Made by a program: the position numbers and the translations under genes | Part shown: piece by piece, positions 1-8,797 of the stretch | Layout of the letters: each line of letters begins with the position of its first letter | Position numbering within the stretch: position 1 is the first letter of the stretch | IMG/VR virus record: IMGVR_UViG_2740892212_000011 | DNA length: 8,797 bases | From: a virus | Lineage: Duplodnaviria; Heunggongvirae; Uroviricota; Caudoviricetes | Direction: 5' to 3' (one strand) | The notes under the pieces: generated by a model | What the model was told of the DNA's origin: nothing | Database searches by the model: none | What the model saw: only the letters and a program-made list of their open reading frames with translations

Positions 1-65
1 TGCATGACAAAGTCATCGGGCATTATCTGAACATAAAACACTATCAATAAGTTGGAGTCATTACC
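1..65 (+). mobile_element. IS1 right end: 3' end of insB (frame 3 reads ...HDKVIGHYLNIKHYQ*, stop 48-50) plus terminal inverted repeat ending ...GTTGGAGTCATTACC at 65; element body lies left of the window
   Basis: Sequence matches the IS1 terminus as I recall it; the same 65 bp recur reverse-complemented at 8726-8790. No search run. Confidence 0.88.
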
Positions 66-685
66 TGAACGTTCATTACGGCCCACAGAACAAATGGAAT
101 GAAGATGCCAAAAAAAATGCAGATATCTTGTTTGGCGCATCAGAACAATCTGCTCTGGCTATCATTCGGGACCATAAAGACAGCTTCAGTGAAAAAGATA
201 TTCAGCCTCTTTATCTGCGAAAAAGTATTTTACTGGTAAAGAAAGGTAATCCTAAAAATATCCGGAGTATTGACGACCTGACCAGACCCGGGATTGGCGT
301 AATTGTTAATGATGGTGGTGGTACCAGTAATACATCAGGCACTGGCGTCTGGGAAGATATTGCCGGACGTAAAGGGAATATAGAAACTGTCGCCGCAATC
401 CGAAAAAATATTATTTTATATGCGCCCAATAGCGGAACTGCACGTAAGGCTCTTGAGAATCAGCCTGAAGCAGATGTCTGGATAACCTGGGCTGACTGGG
501 CAGCCAGTAATCCAGAAATTGGTGATGTCGTGGAAATAGCGCCAGACTACGTGATATGGCGTGATATGAACATTACAGTACGTCAGGATGCAAATGATGA
601 AACCCGTCGATTTGCAGAATGGCTACAAACCGATGAAGCGGCGCCTGCATTCAAAAAATATGGCTGGACCAGGAAAGGCACTTGA
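66..685 (+). pseudogene. C-terminal ~206 codons of a periplasmic solute-binding protein (PBP2-type ABC-transporter substrate-binding fold), N-terminus removed by the IS1 insertion
   Basis: Reading frame is open from the IS1 junction to TGA 683-685 with no signal peptide or plausible start. Family call is from general sequence character only and is tentative. Confidence 0.55.
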
Positions 686-690
686 CATCC

Positions 691-720
691 TCCACGTCCT
701 TCAGAACGTGGATTCTTTTT
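691..720 (+). terminator. Rho-independent terminator of the substrate-binding protein gene
   Basis: Stem CCACGT (692-697) / ACGTGG (706-711), 8-nt loop, then ATTCTTTTT (712-720), starting 6 nt after the stop codon. Confidence 0.6.
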
Positions 721-806
721 CCGGATGCCGCGCCAGCGGCATGTAGGGGCAGCTCACAAAACGGAAAAAATTGTACGCTAAGCCTCGCCAGGTGAACTGA
801 ATTCAT

Positions 807-832
807 TCCGATATGGGAATTCCCATATCGGA
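807..832. repeat. Perfect 26-bp palindrome TCCGATATGGGAATTCCCATATCGGA
   Basis: Reverse complement is identical to the sequence itself; no T-run on either side, so not a terminator. Confidence 0.8.
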
Positions 833-1023
833 CGAAAACGGCTTGCTGTAACGGCAGAGTTAAGTAGAATTGCTGCGGGTGCTTGAGGCTATCTGCCTTG
901 GGCATGAACACCAACGGCAGATAGATAAAAGCCCCACCCGACTATAAATCGAAGTGAGGCCCCTATATGCTCGTCACATATAGATTGCCTCTTACGGACC
1001 GAAAGGTCAAGGAGAAGCAGGCT

Positions 1024-1179
1024 ATGAAGCAGCAAAAGGCGATGTTAATCGCCCTGATCGTCATCTGTTTAACCGTCATAGTGACGGCACTGGTAACGAG
1101 GAAAGACCTCTGCGAGGTACGAATCCGAACCGGCCAGACGGAGGTCGCTGTCTTCACAGCTTACGAACCTGAGGAGTAA
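1024..1179 (+). CDS. hokD: Hok/Gef-family type I toxin (51 aa, single transmembrane helix)
   Basis: Translation MKQQKAMLIALIVICLTVIVTALVTRKDLCEVRIRTGQTEVAVFTAYEPEE matches HokD/RelF as recalled (HokC is very similar, so the symbol is not certain). SD AAGGAG 10 nt upstream; the downstream Rem-like/YdfU-like/Q gene order resembles Qin prophage. Confidence 0.8.
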   Translation: MKQQKAMLIALIVICLTVIVTALVTRKDLCEVRIRTGQTEVAVFTAYEPEE

Positions 1180-1247
1180 GAGACCAGGCGGGGGAGAAAT
1201 CCCTCGCCACCTCTGATGTGTCAGGCATCCTCAACGCACCCGCACTT

Positions 1248-1279
1248 AACCCGCTTCGGCGGGTTTTTGTTTTTATTTT
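1248..1279 (+). terminator. Rho-independent terminator at the 3' end of the hok transcript
   Basis: 7-bp stem AACCCGC / GCGGGTT with UUCG tetraloop, followed by TTTTTGTTTTTATTTT. Confidence 0.8.
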
Positions 1280-1287
1280 CAACGCGT

Positions 1288-1317
1288 TTGAAGTTCCGGA
1301 CGGCGCCGGAATAGAAT
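1288..1317 (+). promoter_or_regulatory. Candidate sigma70 promoter with an inverted repeat in the spacer
   Basis: TTGAAG (1288-1293), 18-bp spacer, TAGAAT (1312-1317); spacer contains TTCCGG (1294-1299) ... CCGGAA (1306-1311). Motif reading only. Confidence 0.3.
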
Positions 1318-1399
1318 CAAAAATACTTAAGTAGCGCGCAGGGAGAAGAGGGATGGACCCCGAACAGGGGAGTGCTATTTATCTGGAAGGATTCTGTTG

Positions 1400-1660
1400 A
1401 TGAAAATCGAAGAATTACGTGAAATTTTTAGTGAAGATGGCCTCTATACTGTGCGCGTTGAGAATGGCGCTATTGTCAGCCACTGCCGTATTAAATGTTT
1501 ACAGTCTCAACAAAGGAAGAGTGGAGCTGCGTTAATTCATTTTGTGGATGGGCTTGTGACGGGTGGTTTTATTCTGCGTGAAAATGAATTTGTCACATCA
1601 TTGCCGTCTCTGAAAGAAGCTGAGCTTAAGGCTGGTTTTTCTGCTTTTGAAGATGAGTGA
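1400..1660 (+). CDS. Small prophage protein (86 aa), possibly the Rem equivalent of Qin prophage
   Basis: ATG 1400 preceded by GGAAGGA; position between hok and the YdfU-like gene matches Qin order hokD-rem-ydfU. Identity by synteny and size only. Confidence 0.55.
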   Translation: MKIEELREIFSEDGLYTVRVENGAIVSHCRIKCLQSQQRKSGAALIHFVDGLVTGGFILRENEFVTSLPSLKEAELKAGFSAFEDE

Positions 1661-1726
1661 ATTCATCTACAATTTAGCGCAGGGCTGAACCCCTGTTGAG
1701 TAACACTGTGCCACCGGAGAAAGCCG

Positions 1727-7354: not shown

Positions 7355-7406
7355 AATAAAAAAAGAGCCAGCGCAGAAGAGAACGGGTAAAAGAGTCTGC
7401 GCTGGC
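7355..7406 (-). terminator. Rho-independent terminator for a minus-strand transcript
   Basis: Perfect 11-bp stem GCCAGCGCAGA (7367-7377) / TCTGCGCTGGC (7396-7406); on the minus strand it is followed by UCUUUUUUU (complement of the A7 run 7358-7364). Confidence 0.6.
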
Positions 7407-7456
7407 GTGGGGATATTCCCCGTGGAGAAATGATATGTAACACATATCGGGAACCT

Positions 7457-7485
7457 TTCTATATAAACATTATCATTATTGTCAA
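7457..7485 (-). promoter_or_regulatory. Candidate minus-strand promoter
   Basis: Consensus TTGACA on the minus strand (complement of 7480-7485) followed at 16 bp by TATAGA; alternative extended -10 TGtTTATAT. Points toward the minus-strand terminator about 90 nt away. Confidence 0.3.
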
Positions 7486-7585
7486 TCATAACAGTCAGGT
7501 ATTATGACGTTTATGCCTCAGGGACATCAGGAATTAACTGGTGGCTTTTTATTGTTGTCAGCTTCCGGATAACGGGAGACGGGGT

Positions 7586-7801
7586 ATGTACCAGATGGAA
7601 AAAATCACAACAGGTGTGTCATACACCACTTCAGCGGTGGGGACGGGATACTGGCTACTGCAGTTGCTGGACAAAGTCTCCCCATCCCAGTGGGTGGCAA
7701 TAGGTGTATTGGGTAGCCTGGTGTTTGGCTTGCTGACGTACCTGACAAACCTTTATTTCAAAATTAAAGAAGACAGGCGTAAGGCTGCGAGAGGAGAGTA
7801 A
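7586..7801 (+). CDS. Phage-21-type class II holin (pinholin) with dual-start motif
   Basis: [71 protein letters not shown] closely resembles S21/EssD as recalled; Met1 (7586) and Met4 (7595) give the dual start; SD GGGAGACGGGG upstream. Confidence 0.9.
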
Positions 7802-7805
7802 GACA

Positions 7806-8024
7806 ATGACTAAAAACTATGAACTGATTGTGAAAGGGACCCGCAATTTTGAGAATAAAGTTACGGTAATCTTAACGTTACAGGACAAAGAACGTTTTGC
7901 CGGTGAAATTTTTGATCTGAACATCAACCTTGAGCGACTTGAAGGAGCTGGTTTGGATTATTATGAAGTTACTGCGGTAAAACATGCCAAACAGTTCTTG
8001 AGAGATTTGGCTGAAAAAATATAA
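7806..8024 (+). CDS. Small protein (72 aa) between holin and endolysin, possibly YdfR/DUF1327-like
   Basis: ATG 7806 with strong SD AGGAGAG 7 nt upstream, 4 nt after the holin stop; visibly AT-rich. Family resemblance is tentative. Confidence 0.6.
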   Translation: MTKNYELIVKGTRNFENKVTVILTLQDKERFAGEIFDLNINLERLEGAGLDYYEVTAVKHAKQFLRDLAEKI

Positions 8025-8043
8025 AGCGGCATTACTGCCGCTT
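8024..8043 (-). terminator. Terminator hairpin between convergent genes, functional mainly for the minus-strand gene
   Basis: Stem AAGCGGCA (8024-8031) / TGCCGCTT (8036-8043), loop TTAC; the minus-strand side is followed by UAUAUUUUUU, the plus-strand side has no T-run. Confidence 0.55.
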
Positions 8044-8048
8044 AGAAA

Positions 8049-8345
8049 TTATTCAATGTCTGGTAGCTTATCAAAGATTTCGGATACTCTTATATTTGTC
8101 ATATAAGCAAATTGAGATTCTGCCAGCTCTTTGGGTGATTTTCCCGCTTTTTCTGAGCCAAAAATTGTTTCTAAAGCCAGCATGTTATATTTGAGAACCT
8201 CTTCTCGAGTTTTACCTGATAATTTTGCGGTAACAGCAATATAAAAAGGCAACACTTTATCCAGAAGGTCGTTGTGTTTTGTCAGTTGTGGTAATACCAC
8301 ATCAAGTTGCTTACTGATTGGTTTGAATGGATCTATACCGTTCAT
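8049..8345 (-). CDS. Hypothetical protein (98 aa), oppositely oriented gene inside the lysis cassette
   Basis: ATG at 8345-8343 (minus strand) with SD-like AAGGGAA upstream; own terminator downstream; visibly AT-rich; no transmembrane segment or recognisable motif. Confidence 0.6.
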   Translation of the reverse strand: MNGIDPFKPISKQLDVVLPQLTKHNDLLDKVLPFYIAVTAKLSGKTREEVLKYNMLALETIFGSEKAGKSPKELAESQFAYMTNIRVSEIFDKLPDIE

Positions 8346-8450
8346 AGTTACATTCCCTTATCAGAGGTAATCAGCCATCCCGCCTTTATTACATACGCCA
8401 GTATCCACCACTGACGGGCTGAGTGCTTAACATATCTAGAGATTAGAAAC

Positions 8451-8470
8451 TGATAAATCCTGATAAATAT
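8451..8470 (+). repeat. Tandem 10-bp direct repeat TGATAAATCC / TGATAAATAT just upstream of the endolysin start
   Basis: Two adjacent copies sharing the first 8 bp, ending 2 bp before ATG 8473. Confidence 0.5.
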
Positions 8471-8472
8471 CC

Positions 8473-8730
8473 ATGAATGCTAATATCAAATACGGCCTGT
8501 CAGCAGCCGTTCTGGCGCTGATTGCTGCAGGCGCGTCTGCTCCTCAAATACTCGACCAGTTTCTGGACGAAAAAGAAGGTAACCACACAGCGGCATACTG
8601 CGATGGTTCCGGCATATGGACCATCTGTCGGGGGGCCACGGTGGTGGATGGAAAACCCGTTTTTCCCGGTATGAAACTGTCGAAGGAAAAATGCGACCTG
8701 GTTAACGCCATTGAACGTGATAAGGGGTAA
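8473..8730 (+). pseudogene. SAR-type endolysin (T4-lysozyme-like muramidase), truncated after ~84 codons by IS1
   Basis: N-terminal Gly/Ala-rich signal-anchor segment YGLSAAVLALIAAGASAP, then catalytic region ...EKEGNHTAAYCDGSGIWTICRG...; the frame runs into the IS1 terminus at 8726 and stops at its TAA (8728-8730). Confidence 0.8.
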
Positions 8731-8797
8731 TGACTCCAACTTATTGATAGTGTTTTATGTTCAGATAATGCCCGATGACTTTGTCATGCAGCTCCAC
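8726..8797 (-). mobile_element. IS1 terminus (same end as at 1-65) in inverted orientation; element body lies right of the window
   Basis: 8726-8790 is the exact reverse complement of 1-65 and continues ...GCAGCTCCAC as IS1 does. Confidence 0.88.

Follow-up and report, generated by a model that had tools for sequence, protein, structure and literature searches.

The 8,797-nucleotide stretch of viral DNA analysed here (IMG/VR record IMGVR_UViG_2740892212_000011; hereafter the window) ends on both sides in a long perfect inverted repeat and is a draft contig from a short-read assembly, carrying part of a lambda-like prophage. The preferred reading, with a probability of about 0.9, is that both contig ends lie inside insertions of the insertion sequence (IS) element IS1, which interrupt the adhesin gene paa and a phage lysozyme gene, respectively. 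In the proposed course of events, two 768-bp copies of IS1 would have entered a lambda-like prophage, one in each of these genes, in opposite orientations and with their insB-side ends (the right inverted repeat, IRR) directed toward the 8.66-kb stretch between them. Because IS1 is a multicopy element, the assembler would have failed to read across it, leaving contig ends that lie 65 and 72 nt inside IS1. On this account, the terminal inverted repeat arises from real IS1 insertions combined with assembly fragmentation and has no function of its own. Insertions of IS1 in prophage genes and contig breaks at IS copies are, taken together, an already known phenomenon.

Terminal Inverted Repeat and Identity of the Window

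The two arms delimited by a repeat finder, at positions 1-65 and 8726-8790, are 65 nt long, 100% complementary and separated by 8,660 nt, and the chance expectation for such an inverted pair in 8.8 kb is about 3e-32. The annotated IS1A of Escherichia coli K-12 MG1655 (NC_000913.3, 19796-20563), with insA and insB, served as the IS1 reference. Window 1-65 is identical at 65 of 65 positions to the last 65 nt of this element (nt 704-768) in the insA-to-insB sense, and window 8726-8797 is identical at 72 of 72 positions to the reverse complement of its last 72 nt (nt 697-768). The right-hand match extends 7 nt past 8790 and reaches the window end at 8797; the inverted repeat seemingly stops at 65 nt because the window starts at the outer edge of the left arm. 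Both window ends are the IRR (insB-side, or insB-distal) terminus of IS1, in inverted orientation and facing inward, and both transposase genes would read toward the 8.66-kb block. Since one IS1 has a single IRR, the presence of the same terminus on both sides means that two separate, inverted IS1 ends flank the block. Circularisation via one IS1 was considered and rejected, the same terminus being found at both ends in opposite orientation.

The window is byte-identical over its full length to the whole-genome shotgun (WGS) contig BBUU01000076.1 of assembly GCA_001592545.1 (8,797 bp, range 1-8797), which was found by searching for the exact sequence of the shortened lysozyme protein and then compared with the window. 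The window is thus an entire WGS contig, and its ending within a repeat that is multicopy in E. coli generally can be read directly from this identity. In IMG/VR, window 1155-8775 is kept independently as a provirus fragment from the genome of an isolate (L019) and is an exact substring of the contig. It is recognised that IS insertions cause short-read assemblies to break into separate contigs (PMC12828178), and the window represents the standard case of a contig that ends in a multicopy IS, with overhangs that are here unequal (65 versus 72 nt). Matches to the IS1 end occur in approximately 5,000-5,150 of the 5,426 complete E. coli genomes, at a median of 10 places per genome; this multicopy figure comes from E. 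coli generally, and the two ends in the window imply at least two copies in the genome concerned.

An initial annotation, made from the letters of the window alone, had described 1-65 and 8726-8790 as exact reverse complements that match the IS1 terminus, had proposed that inverted IS1 copies bracket the block, and had offered as its alternative a draft contig that ends inside a multicopy repeat. The alignment to IS1A bears out the first of these points and, in part, the second, in that two inverted IS1 ends are present and both are inward-facing IRR, and the identity to BBUU01000076.1 establishes the draft contig. The same annotation had placed the block in an IS1-rich genome typical of Shigella. 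This attribution finds no support, as all named relatives of both truncated proteins are from E. coli, and a genome with two IS1 copies would not count as IS1-rich against the E. coli median given above. Circumstantially, the adjacent WGS prefix BBUW01 also belongs to an E. coli strain of an O serogroup ('Escherichia coli O1…').

Insertion Junctions in paa and in the Lysozyme Gene

On the left, the breakpoint lies exactly at the last IS1 base, and window 66 corresponds to nt 140 of the 759-nt paa gene. Between 66 and 685 the window matches nt 140-759 of the paa gene in NZ_CP148746.1 (E. coli Z1322HEC0010) without a single difference; there the gene is annotated as 'AcfC family adhesin Paa', and window 66-400 has 100% identity to the annotated paa of many E. 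coli, including O103:H2 and O45:H2 strains. The fragment lacks the first 139 nt of the gene, its start codon and first 46 codons included, and the remaining open reading frame (ORF) matches the Pfam family SBP_bac_11 (PF13531). On the right, the breakpoint again falls exactly at the last IS1 base, with window 8725 equivalent to nt 253 of a lysozyme gene that measures 534 nt when uninterrupted. Its closest intact version, rrrQ of NZ_CP019271.1 (E. coli 13P460A), differs at 1 of these 253 nt. The shortened lysozyme ORF terminates in ERDKG and is closed at 8730; the IS1 terminus GGTAA supplies its TAA stop and part of the glycine codon (GAT AAG G/GG TAA, with the slash at the junction). The intact paa and lysozyme references both part from the window at precisely the base where IS1 begins, and both junctions are clean insertion junctions, in which an IS1 terminal inverted-repeat sequence meets an otherwise continuous target at its terminal nucleotide. 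The truncation of a substrate-binding protein gene on the left, as initially annotated, was right at the level of the fold (SBP_bac_11), the gene being specifically the adhesin gene paa; the truncation of an endolysin on the right was likewise correct in kind, the gene being a phage lysozyme.

In these respects the two junctions resemble insertions of the 768-bp IS1 elements of K-12 (IS1A/IS1R), with the same IRR end and a junction that falls on the last base of the element, within genes that show no other disruption; here the termini alone are visible, and insA/insB and the second copies of the target duplications would lie beyond the contig. Both copies are probably full length, and each would have arisen by simple insertion with a 9-bp target duplication, the usual size for IS1. 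The insertions would be expected to abolish the function of both paa and the lysozyme. Because the lysozyme is left without its C-terminal 92 residues, the prophage's own lysis cassette should be defective.

Several further observations concern the two interrupted genes. A 185-aa Paa ORF with a TTG start, as called in the window, is also called on two Logan contigs (L017, 1-1887; L018, 1-1542). These contigs were rejected as cases of an IS1 junction, since they carry more than 500 nt of upstream sequence, an intact paa and no IS1; a match to this exact protein does not, on its own, indicate an IS1 junction, because the same 185-aa ORF is called on intact paa loci. In the lysozyme, the region of residues 42-43 (window 8597-8602) reads AAYCDG, as opposed to A/TAYRDG in every relative examined, and this arginine-to-cysteine change is the sole difference from the closest intact lysozyme gene over the 253 nt. 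A related prophage lysozyme is split into ORFs of 75 and 89 aa by a frameshift or stop in many E. coli (L007-L016, at approximately 5737-6270), which suggests that this gene is also inactivated repeatedly by means that do not involve IS1.

Relatives and Colinearity of the Interior

The prophage sequence between the two IS1 ends was compared with complete genomes. NZ_CP148746.1 (L001) aligns colinearly over window 66-3412 and 4389-7287, and NZ_CP070229.1 (L002) aligns over window 2100-8725 in a single alignment; the two alignments overlap by 1.3 kb and contain no internal inversion. The left third of the window matches paa prophages (94.9% identity to NZ_CP148746.1), and the right three quarters match another prophage (96.5% to NZ_CP070229.1). 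Judging from these alignments, the region is a recombinant mosaic. Among the closest known systems are the paa-carrying lambdoid prophages of enterohaemorrhagic and enteropathogenic E. coli (PPompW-type; Z1322HEC0010, EC12; phage Evi), which have the same gene order and 88-98% identity over the aligned segments; the order held in common is paa-hokD-rem-DUF968-rusA-Q-methylase-tRNAs-TerB-DUF3927-holin-DUF1327-lysozyme. The paa-carrying relatives differ in being without the two IS1 insertions, and the whole mosaic is present in no complete E. coli genome.

Alternatively, the contig might be a chimera, in which ends from different loci were joined via a repeat shared between prophages. Lambdoid prophages do share long similar segments, E. 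coli pathotypes often carry several of them, and none of the 5,426 complete E. coli genomes holds at least 80% of the window at one site (the highest coverage at a single site is 74%). However, the 1.3-kb overlap between the colinear references NZ_CP148746.1 (66-3412) and NZ_CP070229.1 (2100-8725) argues against a chimeric contig; moreover, an identical fragment stands independently in IMG/VR, and the contig was recorded in two samples, with similar sequence at two other places. A chimeric origin is consequently regarded as extremely improbable.

Outer Flanks and the Search for the Junctions Elsewhere

Neither junction was encountered in another setting. No match crossing window 66 or window 8725 was obtained in the 5,426 complete E. 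coli genomes or in 72,556 plasmids (megablast with both junction regions), and a search with the whole window gave no junction-crossing match in 50,697 phage records. The exact junction patterns are absent from 185,579 GTDB species-representative genomes; IMG/VR has no instance of the left junction and a single one of the right junction, namely in the provirus fragment mentioned above, which is a substring of the same contig. Since neither junction was found elsewhere, nothing suggests that the block moves as a unit.

The sequences predicted beyond the contig were derived from the left inverted repeat (IRL) terminus of IS1 (GGTGATGCTGCCAACTTACTG...), together with a 9-bp duplication. The left outer flank would consist of the 5' part of paa and the duplication joined to the IS1 IRL, as ...AACAGGTATTATAGTGAACGTTC, and the right outer flank would consist of the duplication and the 3' part of the lysozyme gene joined to the IS1 IRL, as GTGATAAGGCGCTGG... 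(also given as GTGATAAGGCGCTGGCATGGGTGG...). The candidate products of the left outer junction were fusions of the Paa N-terminus into the IS1 IRL, with duplications of 7-11 bp and two start codons; those of the right outer junction were the lysozyme C-terminus, either as an 89-aa ORF with a GTG start or as a partial ORF that leads outward from IS1, at nine overhang lengths. None of the predicted IS1-fusion products was found by exact look-up in a collection of 15 billion proteins, which holds other products of this assembly. Of all the predicted products, the 89-aa lysozyme C-terminal ORF alone is present in the collection, and the larger contigs examined for it have frameshifted lysozyme genes, not IS1 junctions. 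Exact matching fails on a single difference and short ORFs may go uncalled, so these negative look-ups carry little weight.

Against the reading of two intact IS1 insertions, it must be considered that 65 and 72 nt of the respective IS1 copies are visible, so that truncated IS1 remnants are possible; that the exact look-ups of the predicted outer-junction products returned nothing attributable to IS1, a result that would fit, if weakly, a loss of the gene parts absent from the contig; and that the IS1 copy number used here is that of E. coli generally.

Possible Adjacent Deletion, Inversion or Composite Transposition

An IS1-mediated adjacent deletion or rearrangement may have taken place at one or both junctions, in which case the missing 5' part of paa, the missing 3' part of the lysozyme gene, or both would be gone. 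Adjacent deletions are a known activity of IS1 (PMC9330008), and the Paa N-terminus/IS1-IRL fusions predicted for 7-11-bp duplications and two starts are absent from the 15-billion-protein collection. This absence is weak evidence, however, as an exact-sequence look-up requires that an ORF of 46-58 aa be reported by the gene caller; on the right, the lysozyme C-terminal product occurs, among the larger contigs examined, in genomes with frameshifted lysozymes only and is uninformative. Such a deletion is accordingly held to be rather unlikely.

A different possibility is that the block is inverted with respect to the rest of the prophage, either by homologous recombination between the inverted IS1 copies or in one step by duplicative inversion. 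The latter, an intramolecular replicative transposition of a single IS1, yields a pair of copies in opposite orientation, each presenting the same kind of end to the segment. Two inverted copies with inward IRR ends, 8.66 kb apart in one prophage, are the expected product of such an event. All four junctions read identically whether the block is native or inverted; only the linkage across the 768-bp IS1 would therefore discriminate between them, and nothing in the contig opposes inversion. In addition, IS1/Tn9 is listed among the elements whose intramolecular target-primed transposition gives rise to deletions and inversions (PMC9330008, section 5.2.1). That linkage nevertheless lies outside the view of the contig, two independent insertions into dispensable prophage genes are an equally simple account, and at approximately 10 or more IS1 copies per genome the occurrence of two within 9 kb is, by our own estimate, not unlikely by chance. 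Inversion of the block is thus entertained tentatively, as a minority possibility. If it were true, Q, the phage tRNAs and the holin would be uncoupled from the rest of the prophage.

The block might also be a composite transposon of the Tn1681/Tn9 type that has moved, or can move, as a unit. In Tn1681, inverted IS1 copies flanking passenger DNA form a transposon (PMC7554612), and the inverted IS1 ends of the window follow the same pattern; the outer ends of such a unit would both be IRL. As in Tn1681 (STp enterotoxin gene, inverted IS1) and Tn9 (cat, direct IS1), a passenger lies between two IS1 ends in the window, but it consists of an 8.66-kb piece of colinear prophage whose limits interrupt two genes. 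The inner junctions interrupt these genes in the native order and orientation of one colinear prophage, as insertions in situ would, and the junctions are absent from E. coli genomes, plasmids, phages and GTDB representatives, the right junction in IMG/VR being that of the same contig. The same IS1-passenger-IS1 unit was not found in a second genomic context in the collections searched, and a composite transposon is for these reasons very improbable. If it existed, it could take a phage late-regulatory module to new sites, together with a DNA methylase and three tRNA genes. Taking the two possibilities together, the proposal that the two IS1 copies and the 8.66 kb act as a unit, whether as an invertible segment or as a Tn1681-like transposon, is doubtful, and nearly all of its weight comes from inversion.

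Gene Content of the Interior

The 8.66-kb interior is an ordinary colinear lambdoid late-regulation and lysis module, with rusA and the DUF968 gene (nin region) upstream of the late antiterminator gene Q, followed by the holin and lysozyme genes. Its features are listed in Table 1 together with the IS1 ends, the interrupted genes and the predicted target duplications.

Table 1. Features of the window, with positions, strand and basis of assignment.
Feature	Position	Strand	Basis
IS1, last 65 nt (IRR)	1-65	+	65/65 identity to IS1A; contig begins inside the copy
paa 3' fragment (AcfC-family adhesin, SBP_bac_11 fold)	66-685	+	Identity to NZ_CP148746.1; PF13531
Predicted 9-bp target duplication of left IS1, TGAACGTTC	66-74	.	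Suggested by the breakpoint; partner copy beyond the contig
hok/sok-type type I toxin-antitoxin locus (hokD-like, mok overlap)	877-1179	+	Rfam; Pfam HOK_GEF; hokD in relative
rem-like gene	1400-1660	+	Pfam PF27490 Rem
Conserved hypothetical gene, 92 aa	1727-2005	+	Called gene; homologue annotated in NZ_CP148746.1
DUF968 (YdfU-like) gene	2007-3053	+	Pfam PF06147; annotation in relatives
rusA Holliday-junction resolvase gene	3066-3440	+	Pfam PF05866; annotation in relatives
Late antiterminator Q gene	3437-4258	+	Pfam PF03589 Antiterm; 'antitermination protein' in NZ_CP070229.1
Terminator-like hairpin and T-run, tR'-like position	4339-4366	+	Consensus scan; function suggested by position alone
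Small hypothetical gene, 65 aa	4486-4683	+	Called gene; homologue in relatives
DNA methyltransferase gene	4834-5892	+	Pfam PF01555 N6_N4_Mtase; annotation in relatives
Three phage tRNA genes: CAT, Arg-TCG, Arg-TCT	5933-6176	+	ARAGORN; Rfam tRNA; NZ_CP070229.1 annotation
TerB-family gene	6350-6778	+	Pfam PF05099; annotation in relatives
DUF3927 gene	6775-6933	+	Pfam PF13064; annotation in relatives
STnc100-family small RNA	6948-7128	+	Rfam RF02076, 116.8 bits versus gathering score 47
Class II holin gene	7586-7801	+	Pfam PF04971; annotation
DUF1327 gene	7806-8024	+	Pfam PF07041; annotation
Conserved hypothetical gene, 98 aa	8049-8345	-	Called gene; homologue WP_001013163.1 in two relatives
Phage lysozyme 5' fragment (rrrQ-like), nt 1-253 of 534	8473-8725	+	rrrQ comparison; Pfam PF00959, weak
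Predicted 9-bp target duplication of right IS1, GTGATAAGG	8717-8725	.	Suggested by the breakpoint; partner copy beyond the contig
Second IS1, last 72 nt (IRR)	8726-8797	- (insA-to-insB sense)	72/72 identity; contig ends inside the copy

Downstream of the paa fragment, the Rfam sok family (RF01794) matches at 877-1026 with 104.6 bits, on the same strand as the hok ORF, and a 70-aa mok/hokD ORF at 967-1179, assigned to Pfam HOK_GEF, overlaps this match. The tR'-like hairpin lies approximately 80 nt downstream of Q, where a tR'-type terminator is expected; a second terminator-like hairpin with a T-run is present at 4670-4695 (plus strand), after the 65-aa ORF. Among the three tRNA genes, the one with the CAT anticodon is assigned to methionine by ARAGORN, as opposed to tRNA-Ile for its RefSeq homologue in NZ_CP070229.1. 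The STnc100 match sits between the DUF3927 and holin genes; this slot downstream of the phage tRNAs is the place that the stx genes occupy in Shiga toxin (Stx) phages. The subsequent interval of approximately 450 nt before the holin gene (7129-7585) contains no called gene, and its counterpart in NZ_CP070229.1 is annotated as a frameshifted, incomplete pseudogene on the minus strand.

Implications

When a small contig ends in long, perfect inverted repeats, these resemble the boundary of a mobile element, and the present case, in which the repeat marks an assembly stop in a multicopy IS, calls for caution in reading such ends. Were the block inverted or mobilised, it would provide a small further example of IS1-driven prophage rearrangement and no new kind of system. 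As two lineage-specific IS1 insertions that would inactivate the prophage-borne adhesin gene paa and the lysozyme gene, the events recorded at the ends of the window represent routine prophage decay.

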